Origin: a phage | Length of the DNA stretch: 64,000 nt | Direction: 5' to 3' (one strand) | NCBI GenBank assembly: GCA_024572335.1 | Contig: GCA_024572335.1_3052.1 | Shown: piece by piece, positions 3,242-32,477 of the stretch | Layout of the letters: the number at the start of each line of letters is the position of its first letter | How positions within the stretch are numbered: position 1 is the first letter of the stretch | Notes under the pieces: generated by a model | Seen by the model: the letters and a program-made list of their open reading frames with translations, nothing else | Told to the model about the DNA's origin: nothing | Database searches by the model: none | Position numbers and translations under genes: made by a program

Positions 3242-3457
3242 TTAAGCCTTTTTATCAAGAACAGCATTCAGCTTGTTAGTAATTTTATCCAGACGCTTAT
3301 TGAACTCACTAGAAGATAAGCCCTTTTCTGGAGAAATTAAACTAATAACGAAAAATACAACAATAAAAGGAATAAGAAAAATAGCTCCAACTGCCATAAA
3401 CAAAAAGAACGTTACAGTTGTAAGAAAATCAGCTAAACCTTTACGAAATTTATACAT
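3242..3457 (-). CDS. small membrane protein (71 aa, one TM helix)
   Basis: hydrophobic stretch VTFFLFMAVGAIFLIPFIVVFFVISLI. Confidence 0.45.
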   Translation of the reverse strand: MYKFRKGLADFLTTVTFFLFMAVGAIFLIPFIVVFFVISLISPEKGLSSSEFNKRLDKITNKLNAVLDKKA

Positions 3458-11235: not shown

Positions 11236-12138
11236 TTAAGATTTAAGTAAATCGACAATTTTAATTAACTTTTCACGCTCAGATTTAGCTTTACTACTCA
11301 ATCCAGATAGTCTGAAAATTTCATCGTCATACTGTTGAATAGAAATATTCAGCTCTTCAATTTGCTTATTAAAATAATCAATTTGTTCAGAATGTTTTTC
11401 ATTACTACGAACTGGTACAGGTTTTGTAGGTAATTTAGATGAACTGGATTCATCCGGGCGATAAATTAAAATACAACTTGAACCAATCGGGCATTTAGCA
11501 CCAGATGAATATTCTAATGTTCCGACTTCTTTTAAAACTTCAAAAGCTAAACAGAGATGATGCCCCATATTAACATAATCTGTAGAGCGAGCTCTGATGT
11601 AATAATCATCTCCGCGAATACTAAATTTAAAGCATTTAAGGTCTTCTGTATTATTGGTCTTAAAAATCATTTGTTTATCTAGACCTTTAGCTAATCGAGC
11701 GCCTAATGCTAATAATCGTCGTTGATTTTCCCACAAATCCGCAATCATTTGGTCAAATGATAATTTCGGCATTAGTCGACCATAAAGGTCGTATCCTTTA
11801 TTATAATTGCGAAGGATTTCACTCGCGTTAATACGAGACAATGCTCCAATTTTATTAAGTGCTTTCATAATGCGATTAGATAAACTCATTCCAGATCCGT
11901 TTGTTCGCTGTAAATGTTTTTCTAATCCAAATCCAATATCAACTTTAAATTTATCTAAAATTTCAGCATGAACATCTCTGTCAATAACATTCAAATCCAA
12001 AGTTGGGTTAAATCTATGAAAAAATTTATCTGGCTCTCCACGACGAAGTACAGTCCATTCATTTAATTTTTTATTAACTAAAGATTTAATTACTGCATTG
12101 ACATTATTAATTACTACTGACATATTTTTCTCACTCAA
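11236..12138 (-). CDS. hypothetical protein with C-terminal coiled coil (300 aa)
   Basis: tail ...IDYFNKQIEELNISIQQYDDEIFRLSGLSSKAKSEREKLIKIVDLLKS. Confidence 0.55.
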   Translation of the reverse strand: MSEKNMSVVINNVNAVIKSLVNKKLNEWTVLRRGEPDKFFHRFNPTLDLNVIDRDVHAEILDKFKVDIGFGLEKHLQRTNGSGMSLSNRIMKALNKIGALSRINASEILRNYNKGYDLYGRLMPKLSFDQMIADLWENQRRLLALGARLAKGLDKQMIFKTNNTEDLKCFKFSIRGDDYYIRARSTDYVNMGHHLCLAFEVLKEVGTLEYSSGAKCPIGSSCILIYRPDESSSSKLPTKPVPVRSNEKHSEQIDYFNKQIEELNISIQQYDDEIFRLSGLSSKAKSEREKLIKIVDLLKS

Positions 12139-12539
12139 TTTTCAATTTTACTAAATACACAGAATATGATGGAAAAGACTATATAAGCACCGCATACAGA
12201 TTGAACTAATACCATTCCAAAGAACCAAACAATATTATCAAACAATGTCTGTTTTACGTCGAAAGGACGTAAACTTACAGTAATATTATCGCCTTTTTCT
12301 ATTGATGAATACATCTCTGGTGAAATATATTCACTAAATCTATAACCGTCTTTGAGTTCATATACGGCAATAAACGATAAACTAGACCCCTTTCCTTGAG
12401 TTCCTGTAAGGGTATTAACTACAGTAACATCATAATCTTTATAATGCATATAATCATTAATTGCGTAATAACCATATGCAATTACTACACATAAACAACA
12501 TATCAATAAATTCAATCTTTTAATTATCAACTGTTTCAT
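12135..12539 (-). CDS. membrane protein (134 aa, N- and C-terminal TM helices)
   Basis: hydrophobic segments LNLLICCLCVVIAYGYYAI and IVWFFGMVLVQSVCGAYIVFSIIFCVF; preceded by TGGTATAAT extended -10. Confidence 0.5.
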   Translation of the reverse strand: MKQLIIKRLNLLICCLCVVIAYGYYAINDYMHYKDYDVTVVNTLTGTQGKGSSLSFIAVYELKDGYRFSEYISPEMYSSIEKGDNITVSLRPFDVKQTLFDNIVWFFGMVLVQSVCGAYIVFSIIFCVFSKIEN

Positions 12540-18242: not shown

Positions 18243-18629
18243 TTATTCGAGGGAAAGAAGATACTTACTCTGGTAAAACATTCCAGTAATATCATCTATC
18301 GTGCTTTGAATGGCTGGAGGCATTTCTTTATAAATGCTGTTAGATTGGTCTAGTATGCGATCAATCATTTTAATTGTGTCGGTAGGAAGTTTACTGGCAT
18401 CTGGAATTGAAGGCGTGTATTTTCTACCAGAATACCCCAAATATTGCTCACCAAATTTATCAATCAAATCTGGCAACTCGGAGAAAATAAAATCGTATGC
18501 TTTGTGTCTAGCATAACTTTTAGTTTCAAAATGCGCAGAATGAAAATAAGCTTGTGCAGCCATTAATAAACCTAAGTATTCATCTGCCTTTGAAGGTTTT
18601 CCACTTTGTGAAAAGTCGCTGAATTTCAT
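18243..18629 (-). CDS. hypothetical protein (128 aa) downstream of rI
   Basis: ORF overlapping rI stop; followed by hairpin terminator 18221-18238. Confidence 0.5.
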
Positions 18630-18919
18630 TCAGTCTCCAATTTAATGTTCATAATTCTAGCGTATGATTGTGCCATCTCCGCGCCTCGTTCTATACATTC
18701 AAAATCAGAAGAGCACGGGTCATTTTTATAGGTCGTTCTCATAAAACTATAGAACTGTTCAGATGATTCTACGCTTTTATTTTCAAAAAGCATATAAACA
18801 TGTCTAATACCAGATTCCATAAATTTATCAAAATGAGGATCGACATTCGCTTCAATTGATGGAGATAAAGCAAATGACAATCCTAGCATGGCAAAAAGTG
18901 CCGTTGCTTTTAAGGCCAT
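18626..18919 (-). CDS. rI: lysis inhibition regulator rI (periplasmic, signal-anchored)
   Basis: 97 aa; N-terminal signal-like MALKATALFAMLGLSFALSPSIEA; matches my recollection of T4 RI almost residue for residue. Confidence 0.85.
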   Translation of the reverse strand: MALKATALFAMLGLSFALSPSIEANVDPHFDKFMESGIRHVYMLFENKSVESSEQFYSFMRTTYKNDPCSSDFECIERGAEMAQSYARIMNIKLETE

Positions 18920-19777: not shown

Positions 19778-19963
19778 TTAAAGCGTATTCACATAAGCTA
19801 TTAATTCATTTTCTTTCTTATCAAACCGATCAGCAAATTCTTCCTGCTGTTCGGGAGATAGCGGGCCGTATTCATCATAAAAGGTGTTTGCTTCTGTATG
19901 CTCATCTAGAAGTTCATGGATAAGCTCAAACAATTTATCTTTTTGTTCTTTACTCAGACTCAT
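19778..19963 (-). CDS. hypothetical acidic protein (61 aa)
   Basis: ORF immediately upstream of tk. Confidence 0.45.
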   Translation of the reverse strand: MSLSKEQKDKLFELIHELLDEHTEANTFYDEYGPLSPEQQEEFADRFDKKENELIAYVNTL

Positions 19964-20129
19964 ATATTAATTTCCAGGAGTTTTAAAATAATTCGCTTTT
20001 GCTTAAATATTTCCATAGTTAAATGATCAGTATCTTTTTGACCAATTCCAATGGCAAAACCTTTATTAGCAGCGAGTTCAATTAAATTATCAAGCTCACG
20101 TAACACTTCGTATTGTAACTCAAAACTAT

Positions 20130-20357
20130 TCATTTTGGTTTACCTTCTTTAACGAAATCTGGATAAGGATAAAATCCCGAATAAAATCCTTCACCTTTAT
20201 GATTGATACATCCTTTATTAGAACAATAGCACCAATAATCGAAATCACAAGTCATTTCATCGTTGCATAAAGCAAAAACAACCGGCCACTTACACTTTTC
20301 ACAGTGGGCATTTTTAAGAATGCTAGTTTGGCTCATAACCATGTCACCTTTAAGCAA
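20130..20357 (-). CDS. cysteine-rich small protein (putative metal-binding)
   Basis: multiple CxxC pairs: CEKCKW...CNDEMTCDFDYWCYCSNKGC. Confidence 0.45.
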   Translation of the reverse strand: MLKGDMVMSQTSILKNAHCEKCKWPVVFALCNDEMTCDFDYWCYCSNKGCINHKGEGFYSGFYPYPDFVKEGKPK

Positions 20358-20545
20358 TATTCTTCTACGTGCTGTTTACGACCTTTCTTATCAATAAAGG
20401 TATATTCAACGAATGTTCCAATGTAGTCTTTATCTACATCATGTGGACTATTAATTGGACATTTAGTACGGCAAATGCGTTCCCATTGACGAATAATTAC
20501 TGCTTTGTTTTTAGGATCAAACGGATGCGGGTAATGTACTTTCAT
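20333..20545 (-). CDS. hypothetical protein (70 aa)
   Basis: ORF. Confidence 0.4.
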   Translation of the reverse strand: MKVHYPHPFDPKNKAVIIRQWERICRTKCPINSPHDVDKDYIGTFVEYTFIDKKGRKQHVEEYCLKVTWL

Positions 20546-20996
20546 AATCCACCACTATTAAATCAATATCAGGAGTAAACATGTCAATTAATTTAGAAAC
20601 CTTATCCCAATCGCCGCCAGCGATACCACAACCTATGCGTGGAATGTAAATTACTGGTTTGAACAAAAGGGTTTCTGCCTGTAGATTTAATTCTATCATG
20701 CAGTTTACTAAAGCACCATAATCAAGATTAGGACCTGGTTCGTATTGCGTATACAGGTTATAGCATATACCAAATCCCGTAGGACTATGTTTAAAAACAA
20801 TAGACATATCGCCTAATTTATCACGAGAACCGTACTCAGTAGTGGTTTTATCTATTTCTAAAATTTTGGGATAGGCTCTTGCTAATTGACCCGCTACACC
20901 TGAACCCATAGTATGAAAACAATTGCACCCGTGCGCAATAATATTACCTTGAAGAAATAGGGCGACAATATCGCCCTTGATATATTTTACAATCAT
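20517..20996 (-). CDS. macro-domain-like protein (putative ADP-ribose binding/processing)
   Basis: KGDIV...NIIAHGCNCFHTMGSGVAGQLARAYP and C-terminal IPRIGCGIAGGDW resemble macro-domain signatures (GDIT...NAAN..GGGV..AI and G-x-G-x-G). Confidence 0.5.
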   Translation of the reverse strand: MIVKYIKGDIVALFLQGNIIAHGCNCFHTMGSGVAGQLARAYPKILEIDKTTTEYGSRDKLGDMSIVFKHSPTGFGICYNLYTQYEPGPNLDYGALVNCMIELNLQAETLLFKPVIYIPRIGCGIAGGDWDKVSKLIDMFTPDIDLIVVDYESTLPASV

Positions 20997-21334
20997 CTAG
21001 TACTCAATCCTCGATTATAAGAATCTACCAAACGGTCAACCATTGAATGACAAGCGGCTTTATCTTTCTCCTCCGCAACTGAACATTCTAAGGTATTCCA
21101 CTTTTTAGCATATCGTTTTAACAATGTATCATTTTTGTATCTGCTTGATTTATCTCTTTCTCCGTCTTTATATGCATATATTAATTTCTGCGCAAATTCA
21201 GCTTGGCATGCTTTATTTTTCCCGCAATAATCCGCTGCAGTACGGTTTACATACTCTCTAATTTCAGTATATGATGTATCTGCTAACGCAGAAAATGAAA
21301 TTAATCCTATACATAAAACCAAAATTTTAGTCAT
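20993..21334 (-). CDS. secreted cysteine-containing small protein (signal peptide)
   Basis: N-terminal signal peptide MTKILVLCIGLISFSALA; 4 Cys. Confidence 0.45.
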   Translation of the reverse strand: MTKILVLCIGLISFSALADTSYTEIREYVNRTAADYCGKNKACQAEFAQKLIYAYKDGERDKSSRYKNDTLLKRYAKKWNTLECSVAEEKDKAACHSMVDRLVDSYNRGLSTR

Positions 21335-21872
21335 TTACTATTTCCAAAAGTTTATTATTTTTAAGGTAATTAGCCTTTTCTAGGACTTCAGAAGCATATT
21401 TAGAACCTGCTTTAACATTCCATCCCGAATTATAAGAGGATATTGCTTTTCTTATATCGCCCTTATGTATATTTAACCAATAAGAAAGTTCAATGTACGC
21501 CCAGGAAGCTGAATTGGACCGTTTATTCAACATTCTTTTTATTTCAGCATCGGTCATATTATAACCAAGTTCCTTAACTCTTGCTCGCATAGTAGGCAAA
21601 TAATTTTGGAACATTCCATAAGCGTGATGCTTTGGTTTAGATTTTAAATTAACTCCGCCAGAGCTTTCTTGCCATAAAATAGCAGCCATTATATGACCTA
21701 ATCCGCTCTTGTGGATATTTTTGTGTGTTTTATATTTTCCATCCTTAGAAAATTGTTCCCCGAATTGATACGCGTAACGCATGTTATCGAGTTGGACATT
21801 ACTGAAAGTATGCTCGGAGCTATGTGCCATCATTGAAATGGCCAATAGACCAGCGAGTAGTGCTTTTCTCAT
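21327..21872 (-). CDS. secreted lytic transglycosylase (SLT domain)
   Basis: signal peptide MRKALLAGLLAISMMAHS; SLT motifs QESSGG, YGMFQ, SYNSG. Confidence 0.65.
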   Translation of the reverse strand: MRKALLAGLLAISMMAHSSEHTFSNVQLDNMRYAYQFGEQFSKDGKYKTHKNIHKSGLGHIMAAILWQESSGGVNLKSKPKHHAYGMFQNYLPTMRARVKELGYNMTDAEIKRMLNKRSNSASWAYIELSYWLNIHKGDIRKAISSYNSGWNVKAGSKYASEVLEKANYLKNNKLLEIVND

Positions 21873-21879
21873 GCTTACC

Positions 21880-22341
21880 TCATTGAGTTTTAATTACTGC
21901 TTTAGAAGCCTTTCCTGGTAAACGACGACTGTTGATAATTGCCATCCTACATTGAAGTGACGGGTCTTTGAACTTCGCATTAGGTTTACAAACTGTAAAT
22001 CCAAGCCAAAGATTTCCATTTGTGATTTCTAAACGTCCAGGACGGTATTCAACCCCATCAATAAAATCCTCGTCAATGTCAGGACGCGGAGGCATACTCA
22101 GGAATTCATTAACTTCTAAAACATGGTCTTTTATTTTATGGAATAATTCAAAAACGTATGTCTCATCAATCTCCCGTTGAATTGCACGATCAAGAAGATG
22201 TTGAGAATATTTTAGATGAAACGATGAGACTCCTTCTGCTTTTGATGCTTCACGAATCTCATTGTTAATTTGACGAAACTCCGACTCAAAGTGACGACGA
22301 AGCTTATTTCGACGGATAAAAACTTCTGTATTGATAGTCAT
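21880..22341 (-). CDS. regB: site-specific endoribonuclease RegB
   Basis: 153 aa; sequence matches recollection of T4 RegB (MTINTEVFIRRNKLRRHFESEF...); early promoter at 22369-22398. Confidence 0.8.
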   Translation of the reverse strand: MTINTEVFIRRNKLRRHFESEFRQINNEIREASKAEGVSSFHLKYSQHLLDRAIQREIDETYVFELFHKIKDHVLEVNEFLSMPPRPDIDEDFIDGVEYRPGRLEITNGNLWLGFTVCKPNAKFKDPSLQCRMAIINSRRLPGKASKAVIKTQ

Positions 22342-22368: not shown

Positions 22369-22398
22369 ATTATACCACAGTCAAGAGGAAAAGTAAAC
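22369..22398 (-). promoter_or_regulatory. early promoter upstream of regB
   Basis: GTTTAC (22393-22398) - 18 bp - TATAAT (22369-22374). Confidence 0.6.
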
Positions 22399-22400
22399 AG

Positions 22401-22679
22401 TTATTCTTTAAATCTAATCAATTTATTCATAGACTTTGAAACTTCTGCACGAACCTCATGTAAGTTTTTAAGCTGTTCAAGACGCTGCTCATAGTAAGCA
22501 ATTTCATCTTCTTCGAGACAGTCCTGTGAATCTTCTTTAAGATAACGTGCATAGTCCTGAAAAGCTTTACGGACTACTTCCTGAAAGTCATCAAGACTTT
22601 GAATTTTCTTAGGAGCGGCAGATACACGACGAGGTGCAGTATAATACTCATAACCAAACCCTGCACTTAATTGAGCCAT
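22401..22679 (-). CDS. hypothetical helical protein (92 aa from MAQLSAG)
   Basis: probable start at internal ATG abutting upstream ORF stop. Confidence 0.4.
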
Positions 22680-22981
22680 TAGTATTTTTCCTCTGGTTGG
22701 AACACTGCACGACAAGCCCACATACTGGCTTCTTTGAGTTTCGTTTTAGCAATAGTTAACTGATCGAGGCTTTCAGCATAATTCTTCGCGAGTTCATAGT
22801 CTTCACAGCTATTAAATGCTTCCCAAAATTCATCGTATAAAGCATCAAAGATAAGTCCTAAACGAACTTCAGCGTCTTTGATAGCATTCACTTTACCGAT
22901 TTTCTCTTCAGTATGCGGCTTATAACTTTTAATGTCTTCAATCATATTTGACTTCCTCACCAGTACATAAATCATATTCAA
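22679..22981 (-). CDS. hypothetical protein (88-100 aa)
   Basis: ORF; true start may be MIEDIK at 22945. Confidence 0.4.
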
Positions 22982-23159
22982 CTAAACGAATAGGTTCATG
23001 AATGCCATATCCTTGAACAGAAATTTCTGTCGTAGGATAAATTCCATCAATATCACCCATATTCCAGGCTTCGTTAAATTGCTGTTCGCCTGAATTACTA
23101 AACCACTCGGCGAAAGCATTTAGCACATCTTTAGAACCTTCAATAATTATCTTTGCCAT
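22938..23159 (-). CDS. hypothetical protein (73 aa)
   Basis: ORF, ATGA-type overlap with the GrcA-like gene. Confidence 0.4.
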   Translation of the reverse strand: MAKIIIEGSKDVLNAFAEWFSNSGEQQFNEAWNMGDIDGIYPTTEISVQGYGIHEPIRLVEYDLCTGEEVKYD

Positions 23160-23521
23160 TACAAACTCTCAGTAAAGGTACGAGCGATAACGTCGCGCTG
23201 CTGTTCCGGAGTCAGAGAGTTAAAGCGAACTGCATATCCGGATACACGGATGGTCAGCTGCGGATATTTTTCCGGATGCTTAACTGCATCTTCCAGAGTT
23301 TCGCGACGCAGAACGTTAACGTTCAGGTGTTGACCACCTTCAATTTTAACTGTAGGCTGTTGCTCAATTTCAATTTCACGGGCATGCAAACCGTAGAAAA
23401 TTTCTGGGTCTACAAAAGAGTCCTCTTTAAAGGTTTTGGAGACAATAATTCGTGCTTGAATACCATCTTCAAAATAAATAGTACCTTTATGTGTGCCTTC
23501 AAGAATTTGATATGCTTTCAT
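23159..23521 (-). CDS. autonomous glycyl radical cofactor (GrcA/YfiD-like)
   Basis: C-terminal ~60 aa [60 protein letters not shown] carries the RVSGY glycyl-radical signature, as in E. coli GrcA. Confidence 0.85.
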
Positions 23522-32291: not shown

Positions 32292-32477
32292 CTATTCACC
32301 TTTAGAAATTTTATCCATAACGATAGCAATTAAACCAATTAAAAATGCTACTACAAGTGAAAATACATTTTCTGCTGTAGTTAATAATCCGCATATAAAT
32401 CCAACAAACATTGAAAAACTAAAAGCAGAAGCAGAAATTGCAATAGCAACATTTCGAATTAATTCACAACGTTTCAT
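32292..32477 (-). CDS. small membrane protein (61 aa)
   Basis: GAGGAGAA SD; two hydrophobic helices; early promoter 32506-32535. Confidence 0.45.
   Translation of the reverse strand: MKRCELIRNVAIAISASAFSFSMFVGFICGLLTTAENVFSLVVAFLIGLIAIVMDKISKGE

Follow-up and report, generated by a model that had tools for sequence, protein, structure and literature searches.

The two adjacent genes vs.1 and vs, located in a 64,000-nucleotide (nt) stretch of phage DNA (NCBI assembly GCA_024572335.1, contig GCA_024572335.1_3052.1; hereafter the window), may constitute an early-transcribed module in which an exported lytic transglycosylase, Vs.1, is accompanied by an exported partner, Vs. We favor this reading tentatively, holding it at slightly less than even confidence. 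The interval 20993-21872 consists of exactly two open reading frames (ORFs), both on the minus strand: vs.1 (21327-21872; 181 amino acids, aa), for a predicted exported lytic transglycosylase precursor of the GH23/SLT type, and vs (20993-21334; 113 aa), annotated as 'valyl-tRNA synthetase modifier', for a PHROG 1256 protein predicted to be exported and to contain four helices and four cysteines. The initial annotation of this DNA had proposed two consecutive secreted-type ORFs here, and its coordinates proved exact. It had also recognized the ES, GMFQ and SYNSG motifs in the 181-aa protein, all of which are present, and had suggested an early-expressed enzyme distinct from the endolysin e and from gp5, which agrees with the supplement of a T4 omics study (PMC9697503). 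The two checks by which it could have been refuted, on conservation of the catalytic glutamate and on signal peptides, both came out in its favor, the latter by heuristic analysis. What it described as a small cysteine protein indeed has four invariant cysteines, but the identity of the two genes as vs.1 and vs, the latter annotated as a cytoplasmic valyl-tRNA synthetase (ValRS) modifier, had been missed.

The window belongs to a Tequatrovirus (T4-like phage), as a 2-kb region was 98.7-99.2% identical to many Tequatrovirus genomes in megablast comparisons, and the gene order in annotated relatives is regB, vs.1, vs, tk.4. The 181-aa protein matches ORF 61.4 of the 1986 T4 record X04567 at 100% identity and thus corresponds to Vs.1, whereas the 113-aa protein is the counterpart of ORF 60.9 (115 aa in T4), that is, Vs; the 1986 record calls this ORF just 'ORF 60.9', without the vs label. 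The stop codon of vs.1 and the start codon of vs share an 8-nt overlap (ATGACTAA; 21327-21334, minus strand), which suggests translational coupling from vs.1 to vs, and the vs stop in turn overlaps the start of tk.4 by 4 nt. A GAGG Shine-Dalgarno sequence of vs.1 (21878-21881, minus strand), marked as a potential rRNA binding site in X04567, overlaps the regB stop codon. Upstream of regB, a consensus scan identified a sigma-70-like promoter (TTTACT-17-TATAAT with an extended TG; 22369-22397, minus strand), where X04567 annotates a -10 element; this predicted promoter is likely the early promoter of regB-vs.1-vs-tk.4. Consistently, the vs and vs.1 RNAs were classed as early in a dual RNA-seq and omics study of T4, and both proteins were detected by mass spectrometry in infected cells (PMC9697503 supplements).

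Vs.1 matched the Pfam SLT profile (PF01464) with an E-value of 1.4e-5 and 25.1 bits (gathering cut-off 21.3), residues 61-154 being aligned to profile positions 16-101. Family-1 lytic transglycosylases are characterized by E-S, GLMQ-like and AYNxG-like motifs. The counterparts in Vs.1 are E69-S70, including the predicted single catalytic acid/base Glu69 (codon 21666-21668, minus strand), which the model places at the C-terminal end of helix 59-70, G86-M-F-Q89 (21606-21617, minus strand), equivalent to GLMQ, and S146-Y-N-S-G150 (21423-21437, minus strand), equivalent to AYNxG. In 26 homologues, with identities down to 40%, residues E69, G86, F88, Q89, Y147, N148 and G150 are invariant and S70 is nearly so; furthermore, the motifs persist in distant relatives from Ackermannviridae (Salmonella phage Det7, locus L005), Felixounavirus (Escherichia phage finno, locus L006) and an additional locus, L056. 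The AlphaFold2 model built from the 26-sequence alignment (mean predicted local distance difference test, pLDDT, 87.6) displays the lysozyme-like alpha fold of GH23 enzymes, and the top Foldseek matches of this model in the PDB were all GH23 proteins, namely MltD, goose-type lysozyme, a Ralstonia GH23 chitinase, LtgA and Slt70. Sequence searches against the PDB, with single sequences as well as with a Vs.1 profile, retrieved no transglycosylase; the sole profile match was a goose-type lysozyme (E=0.37), the C-terminal motif of which aligned with the S146-G150 stretch. Given that these sequence-only searches yielded nothing convincing, Vs.1 is a divergent member of GH23. NCBIfam gave no match for Vs.1. 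Thus, as judged from sequence and structural model, Vs.1 is a GH23/SLT protein, with every membership feature that could be assessed here in place. Between E69 and G86, the alignment of the 26 sequences contains no invariant Asp or Glu. The lack of a conserved second carboxylate favors transglycosylase chemistry over hydrolysis of the goose-type lysozyme kind, and Vs.1 is accordingly predicted to be a transglycosylase rather than a hydrolase.

The genes themselves and the SLT similarity of vs.1 are already known: Nolan et al. (2006) reported Pfam E-values of 0.012-0.74 in 6 of 6 T4-like genomes and, for the same match by PSI-BLAST, cited the T4 genome review of 2003 (PMC1524935). Our literature searches retrieved this comparative-genomics note and no functional study of vs.1, and a 2020 paper on Spackle still counts two T4 lysozyme genes, e and 5 (PMC7650644). 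Relatives of Vs.1 are encoded in 2,046 phage records, from Straboviridae, Ackermannviridae, Felixounavirus and other groups. In the felixounavirus finno (locus L006), the gene for a Vs.1-like SLT protein, predicted to be exported, is annotated as 'putative lysin' and directly follows rIIA-rIIB, with the spanin genes about 1.2 kb further downstream.

Both proteins begin with what appears to be a cleavable export leader. The leaders were called by our own heuristic analysis of n-, h- and c-regions and by a crude screen. Each consists of K/R residues, a 13-aa uncharged hydrophobic core and a small-x-small site, as in type I signal peptides: MRK-ALLAGLLAISMMA-HS↓SE in Vs.1 and MTK-ILVLCIGLISFSA-LA↓DT in Vs (arrows, predicted cleavage). 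The predicted Sec signal peptide covers aa 1-18 in both cases, with cleavage at AHS↓SE in Vs.1 (21819-21872, minus strand), where the pLDDT of the model is low, and at ALA↓DT in Vs (21281-21334, minus strand). The mature forms would be proteins of 163 aa and 18.8 kDa (Vs.1) and of 95 aa and 11.0 kDa (Vs), with the predicted N-terminal peptides SEHTFSNVQLDNMR and DTSYTEIR, respectively. Among the 128 ATG-initiated ORFs of at least 60 aa in the window, 6 passed the crude screen and only 3 of these lacked a later membrane segment: Vs, Vs.1 and the product of 18626-18919 (minus strand), which is RI. As RI is a known periplasmic lysis-inhibition antiholin, it provided an unplanned positive control of the screen; its gene lies 2 kb downstream of vs and vs.1 in the same orientation. 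The other 3 (3242-3457, 12135-12539 and 32292-32477, all on the minus strand) combine a hydrophobic N-terminus with a later membrane-like segment and are probably small membrane proteins.

Comparison of homologues pointed in the same direction. The positive-plus-hydrophobic character of the leader was retained in all 26 Vs.1 homologues and in 32 of 38 Vs homologues, whereas its sequence showed lower conservation than that of the mature part (majority fraction 0.47-0.49 versus 0.69-0.70), and the 2-aa indel that distinguishes T4 Vs from the Vs of the window (115 versus 113 aa) is restricted to the leader. Divergence and indels in a segment that keeps its overall character are the pattern of cleaved signal peptides. 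Moreover, in the clade of Enterobacter phage CC31 (GU323318; locus L037, 3549-3875), Vs starts with MKKLFVLLVVFALSGC↓K, a canonical lipobox (LSGC), and is nevertheless annotated as 'vs: valyl-tRNA synthetase modifier'. Only this clade carries a lipobox; elsewhere in the Vs family the leaders are of type I. The Vs of the window was considered as a lipoprotein and rejected, because Cys8 of its leader is not conserved and its context, LVLC, does not form a lipobox. Likewise, Vs.1 was rejected as a signal-anchor-release (SAR) endolysin because the 13-aa h-region, followed by a small-x-small site, is too short, SAR domains requiring about 18-20 aa or more. Vs lacks an internal Met from which a leaderless form could be made, and full-length T4 Vs with an N-terminal His tag formed inclusion bodies in the E. 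coli cytoplasm (PMC8076793). The leaders, the lipobox variant, the four cysteines and the cytoplasmic insolubility together make the Vs family look exported; export and leader cleavage of both Vs and Vs.1 are what these features predict.

The mature part of Vs is small, helical and marked by its cysteines. Vs matched PHROG 1256 (E=5.2e-40), and PF26829 assignments were precomputed for all Vs homologues; our own Pfam and NCBIfam searches returned no match for Vs. A Vs profile searched against 1.84 billion representative sequences retrieved only 8 at E<=1e-3, of which the identifiable ones were phage proteins, and no remoter relatives, so that the family appears to be small and confined to phages. 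Exactly four cysteines occur in the mature part of 78 of the 81 family members, the other 3 having five. In the window, they are C37 (21224-21226), C43 (21206-21208), C84 (21083-21085) and C95 (21050-21052), their codons spanning 21050-21226 on the minus strand. Across the family, the spacing is C-x5/6-C, then 37-41 residues, then C-x8-10-C, with one x15 outlier; the lengths of the loops between the invariant cysteines thus vary, which is typical of disulfide loops. The AlphaFold2 model of Vs (pLDDT 86) is a four-helix bundle (helices 20-37, 41-63, 68-84 and 89-111) in which each cysteine pair flanks the turn of a helix-loop-helix, and we infer from this arrangement two disulfide staples, C37-C43 and C84-C95, one per helical hairpin. 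A Cys4 zinc site in a cytoplasmic Vs was considered as well and is unlikely, owing to the variable loop lengths and the lack of CxxC knuckles. These features, which suggest a periplasmic protein, are hard to reconcile, at the sequence level, with binding of ValRS in the cytoplasm.

To assess the linkage of the two genes, we took 50 IMG/VR loci encoding Vs.1 relatives for synteny counts. In 47 of these, the vs.1 stop is followed, at -8 to +3 nt, by the start of an ORF of 90-130 aa whose product has a leader and shows the four-cysteine pattern. A hidden Markov model built from T4-type Vs proteins recognized 44 Vs ORFs, and the rest form a 'short' subtype (C-x8-C), which includes an unannotated ORF of Acinetobacter phage Mokit and belongs to the same family as the long subtype, since it matches PHROG 1256 at E=1e-32. 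Two further loci carry truncated copies of Vs, 85 aa (L022, 3541-3798) and 65 aa (L040, 3549-3746) in length, indicating that Vs can be lost or broken in nature, and a single locus, with a Vs.1 relative of 31% identity, has no Vs ORF. In the reverse search with the Vs profile, all 27 loci had vs.1 upstream, and all were located on contigs already found via vs.1. An exception to the pairing was observed in Aeromonas phage 31 (L003, 2605-3296), where two ORFs, the first of 75 aa and the second of 146 aa with a leader resembling that of lipoproteins (…IGMYGC), separate vs.1 from tk.4.

A third gene for a predicted exported protein follows vs of the short subtype, with a 4-nt overlap. Its product of 133-148 aa, with a leader ending in A↓WE and two conserved cysteines, is phrog_4957, a group of unknown function, and had no Pfam match. 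The gene is present in loci L015-L019, L034-L035, L037-L041 and L049-L055 (for example, 3872-4291 in L037 and 3842-4267 in L050), in lineages that include CC31, the Erwinia phage Cronus-like locus L039, several further contigs (for example, L015-L019) and Acinetobacter-type loci. T4-type phages lack it, and tk.4 occupies the position. In Acinetobacter phage Mokit (MW388002; L004, 1980-3847), five successive genes encode products with a leader or membrane segment, namely a Vs.1-like protein, the unannotated Vs homologue, the phrog_4957 protein, a 99-aa ORF product and the antiholin rI, a run that, from its sequence, looks like an envelope-directed cluster.

Published mutant fitness data also set the two genes apart from their neighbors. 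The supplementary tables of the HIDEN-SEQ preprint (bioRxiv 10.1101/2025.11.20.689424) report transposon-insertion data for phage T4 and for Bas37, a second Tequatrovirus in which Vs is 113 aa long, as in the window; all values in this paragraph are from that source. In liquid competition in LB, mean reads in T4 were 26.6 for vs and 22.6 for vs.1, compared to 128-767 for the neighbors (regB 179, tk.4 290, vs.3 652, tk.3 767). In M9 versus LB, the log2 fold change was -2.19 for vs (adjusted p about 0) and -0.87 for vs.1 (p=0.0055, adjusted 0.155), against -0.20 to +0.28 for the neighbors and +1.17 for regB; in the M9 control at 30 °C, mean reads were 9.9 (vs), 9.4 (vs.1), 267 (regB) and 288 (tk.4). 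In the clinical strain CFE299 versus K-12, vs changed by -1.04 (p=0.13) and vs.1 by -1.20 (adjusted p=0.015), whereas all their neighbors were slightly up (Extended Data Table 6, sheet Data S9). In Bas37 grown in LB liquid, mean reads were 23.5 for vs and 73.8 for vs.1, compared to 324 for regB, 326 for the tk.4-like gene and 163-619 for the others. The authors found vs to be the most depleted T4 gene in M9-glucose versus LB and a clean vs knock-out to plaque poorly on M9, and interpreted the effect via the ValRS annotation; their main text discusses only this minimal-medium result for vs and does not mention vs.1. By these published data, vs and vs.1 are the only genes of the block for which fitness costs run in parallel and depend on the condition, a pattern seen in both phages and under several conditions. 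Since regB precedes both genes in the operon and its insertions were never depleted, general transcriptional polarity is an unlikely cause. Insertions in sp, which encodes Spackle, carried no fitness cost in the same datasets.

Taken as a module, vs.1 and vs could operate as follows. Vs.1 would be made early with a Sec signal peptide and released in soluble form, with about 163 aa and 18.8 kDa, into the periplasm, where it would cleave the bond between N-acetylmuramic acid (MurNAc) and N-acetylglucosamine (GlcNAc) in the host murein, using Glu69 as the single acid/base and probably leaving 1,6-anhydroMurNAc ends. Vs, co-exported and as a mature protein of 95 aa and 11 kDa folded into a four-helix bundle of two disulfide-stapled hairpins, would bind Vs.1 and restrain or direct its activity, such that the murein is remodeled during infection without premature lysis. 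The benefit would be most visible when growth is slow or poor, and in certain hosts. We lean towards a Vs that restrains or directs the enzyme because an unregulated early transglycosylase would risk premature lysis, because losing vs generally does no less harm than losing vs.1, and because vs evolves fast; a Vs that serves as a co-required subunit of Vs.1 is equally allowed. As a matter of speculation, the module may keep the sacculus fit for cell enlargement or for later lysis when the murein is more cross-linked; the gp16 transglycosylase of phage T7 is similarly reported to be needed only under such conditions. The proposal of the initial annotation that the small protein is a partner or inhibitor of the enzyme therefore gained indirect support, from synteny, shared predicted export and parallel mutant phenotypes. 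In contrast, we obtained no evidence for any of the roles that it had suggested for the enzyme, in superinfection exclusion, in lysis-inhibition signaling or at DNA entry.

Several observations weigh against the module. regB lies upstream of vs.1 in 44 of the 50 loci, although RegB is a functionally unrelated cytoplasmic RNase, and T4 genes are tightly packed in general. Given that the regB-vs.1 pair is equally conserved and that packing is tight, synteny alone is weak evidence. Specific co-evolution did not emerge from a mirror-tree comparison controlled with RegB and Tk.4, the correlation between Vs.1 and Vs being 0.58 and the partial correlation given RegB 0.08, an outcome that is uninformative to mildly negative, as the Vs distances are near saturation. 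Relatives of Vs.1 in Felixounavirus and Ackermannviridae occur without Vs. The vs.1 insertion phenotypes could be an effect of translational polarity on vs, through lost coupling, and a function in translation would be compatible with the minimal-medium phenotype as well. Foldseek revealed no similarity of the Vs model to PDB structures of known lysozyme or transglycosylase inhibitors (T4 Spackle, Ivy, PliG/MliC and Tsi immunity proteins): the best E-value was 2, and the 51 matches included no inhibitor and no Spackle, so that a Spackle-like or Ivy-like fold was rejected. Finally, Vs is annotated as a factor that binds and stabilizes the host ValRS, a cytoplasmic function.

This last point leads to the most direct alternative, namely that the annotation is right. 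Vs would then be the tau factor acting on cytoplasmic ValRS, with an N-terminus that is unused or exports only part of the pool, the adjacency to vs.1 would reflect synteny of the early block, and Vs.1 would be an independent periplasmic transglycosylase. The label is uniform across databases, in PHROG 1256 and in the phage records, about 800 of which contain a homologue. According to the classical work on vs, T4 infection reportedly stabilizes a thermolabile ValRS in vivo, and vs mutants are said to lose the effect; in addition, the size reported for tau, about 10 kDa, is near that of mature Vs (11.0 kDa). The strongest vs phenotype was in minimal medium, where amino-acid supply limits translation, and both the equally conserved regB-vs.1 synteny, which has no functional link behind it, and the missing co-evolution signal agree with this account. 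However, a cytoplasmic Vs does not explain why the leader character is conserved family-wide and replaced by a lipobox in the CC31 clade, why four invariant cysteines are placed as two hairpin staples, or why no internal Met is available for a leaderless form. Nor does it fit with the insolubility of the protein when kept in the cytoplasm (PMC8076793), with the presence of vs.1 upstream in every locus found with the Vs profile, or with the phenotype that vs.1 mutants share with vs mutants in two phages and three conditions; moreover, X04567 does not name ORF 60.9 as vs. We consider this explanation unlikely. A reversal of the label, by which vs really encodes a periplasmic regulatory subunit of Vs.1 (a lipoprotein in some phages), the M9 phenotype arises in the cell wall and not in translation, and the ValRS modifier is encoded elsewhere or normally resides in another compartment, we regard as possible, if doubtful.

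Both proteins could also be exported but act independently, Vs being a fast-evolving envelope factor with another target, such as a superinfection-exclusion, receptor-masking or anti-defense protein. Indeed, the rate of evolution is about threefold higher in Vs than in Vs.1 (mean distance 1.25 versus 0.44), without partial correlation between the two, Vs.1 relatives occur without Vs in other phage families, and the neighborhood is rich in genes for host takeover or anti-defense, such as tk.4 (AdfM) and presumably vs.4 (Acb2). The lipoprotein Vs of CC31 weakly matched the Cor exclusion lipoprotein family (E=0.0013), but the match covers mainly the leader. Against independence stand the strict gene order with gene overlap in 47 of the 50 loci and the condition-dependent fitness profile that vs and vs.1 share, unlike every neighbor, and we judge it quite unlikely. 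An alternative that concerns the enzyme itself is that Vs.1 is a hydrolytic muramidase resembling goose-type lysozyme, or a non-catalytic murein binder, rather than a lytic transglycosylase. GH23 does hold both chemistries, and the sole PDB match by sequence profile was a goose-type lysozyme; yet no second carboxylate is conserved downstream of the catalytic Glu, which speaks against a muramidase, and the invariance of this Glu speaks against a non-catalytic protein, so that either possibility appears decidedly improbable.

Compared with known systems, the predicted exported transglycosylase-partner module shows likeness mainly in logic. Vs.1 shares only 13-21% identity with Slt70, MltC and MltE of E. 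coli and with Slt, MltF and MltD of Pseudomonas. What sets it apart from these family-1 transglycosylases is its minimal architecture, one domain preceded by an N-terminal extension (aa 19-58) that is specific to phages; moreover, it is phage-encoded, early-transcribed and part of neither the virion nor the lysis cassette. The transglycosylases T7 gp16, phiKZ gp144 and phi29 gp13 are carried in the virion and work from outside during DNA entry, whereas Vs.1, with its Sec leader, is predicted to be made in the infected cell and to act from within. For Vs, the closest parallel is the pair of Spackle (gp61.3) and gp5: Spackle, an early, small, helical protein that carries a signal peptide and resides in the periplasm, inhibits a lysozyme-fold enzyme by binding to it (PMC7677548, PMC7650644). 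However, Spackle targets the gp5 of the incoming phage rather than a co-expressed enzyme and is not encoded beside its target, and the Vs model has no fold match to it. Vs is likewise unrelated, in sequence or fold, to the Tsi and Ivy proteins of the Tse3-Tsi3 muramidase effector-immunity pair of the type VI secretion system (T6SS) and of Ivy-MltB. As Vs and Vs.1 would be sent to the same compartment of the same cell, Vs would be a regulator and would not confer self-protection as in the T6SS pairs. As expected of such an inhibitor, Vs is predicted to be exported and is encoded next to its candidate enzyme, but the fold comparison failed to link it to any of them, and the resemblance to Spackle-gp5, Ivy-MltB and Tse3-Tsi3 is one of logic only: a small exported protein that acts on a lysozyme-fold enzyme is common to all, and adjacency of the genes is shared with the T6SS pairs only. 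By sequence, the Vs of the window belongs to the same family as PHROG 1256 and PF26829; its features predict the periplasm, whereas the function annotated for the family requires the cytoplasm.

Upstream of regB, homologues of vs.3-vs.6 occupy 22401-23521 (minus strand). Of these, vs.4 (within 22679-22981) probably corresponds to the cyclic GMP-AMP (cGAMP) sponge Acb2. The vs.6 gene (23159-23521) would correspond to an ORF with a glycyl-radical domain noted by Nolan et al. 2006 (PMC1524935). Between tk and tk.4 lie four small ORFs (19778-20545, minus strand), as in phage Bas37. Directly downstream of vs, tk.4 (20517-20996, minus strand) encodes a macro-domain protein (Pfam Macro, E=1.3e-7), the T4 version of which is called 'AdfM', an anti-DarTG2 factor, in the HIDEN-SEQ preprint (bioRxiv 10.1101/2025.11.20.689424). 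In the close relative vB_Eco_NR1, two of the ORFs corresponding to those between tk and tk.4 are labeled with matches to non-T4 phages.

In the literature that we searched, we did not find a prediction of Vs export, a conserved exported module of two or three genes, the sharing of vs phenotypes by vs.1, or the conflict of these features with the ValRS label. T4 is the reference model for virulent phages, and papers on its murein enzymes count only two lysozymes, e and gp5 (PMC7650644). Vs.1 would be a third murein-cleaving enzyme, early and predicted to be exported, that is conserved in more than 2,000 phage records. As Vs.1 and its candidate partner affect fitness in poor medium and in a clinical host, they point to an unstudied step in the way T4-like phages manage the host envelope. 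If the function or compartment of vs has been misassigned, one of the oldest functional labels of T4 would be wrong and copied into about 800 phage records, and the interpretation of current functional-genomics screens would be misdirected as well.

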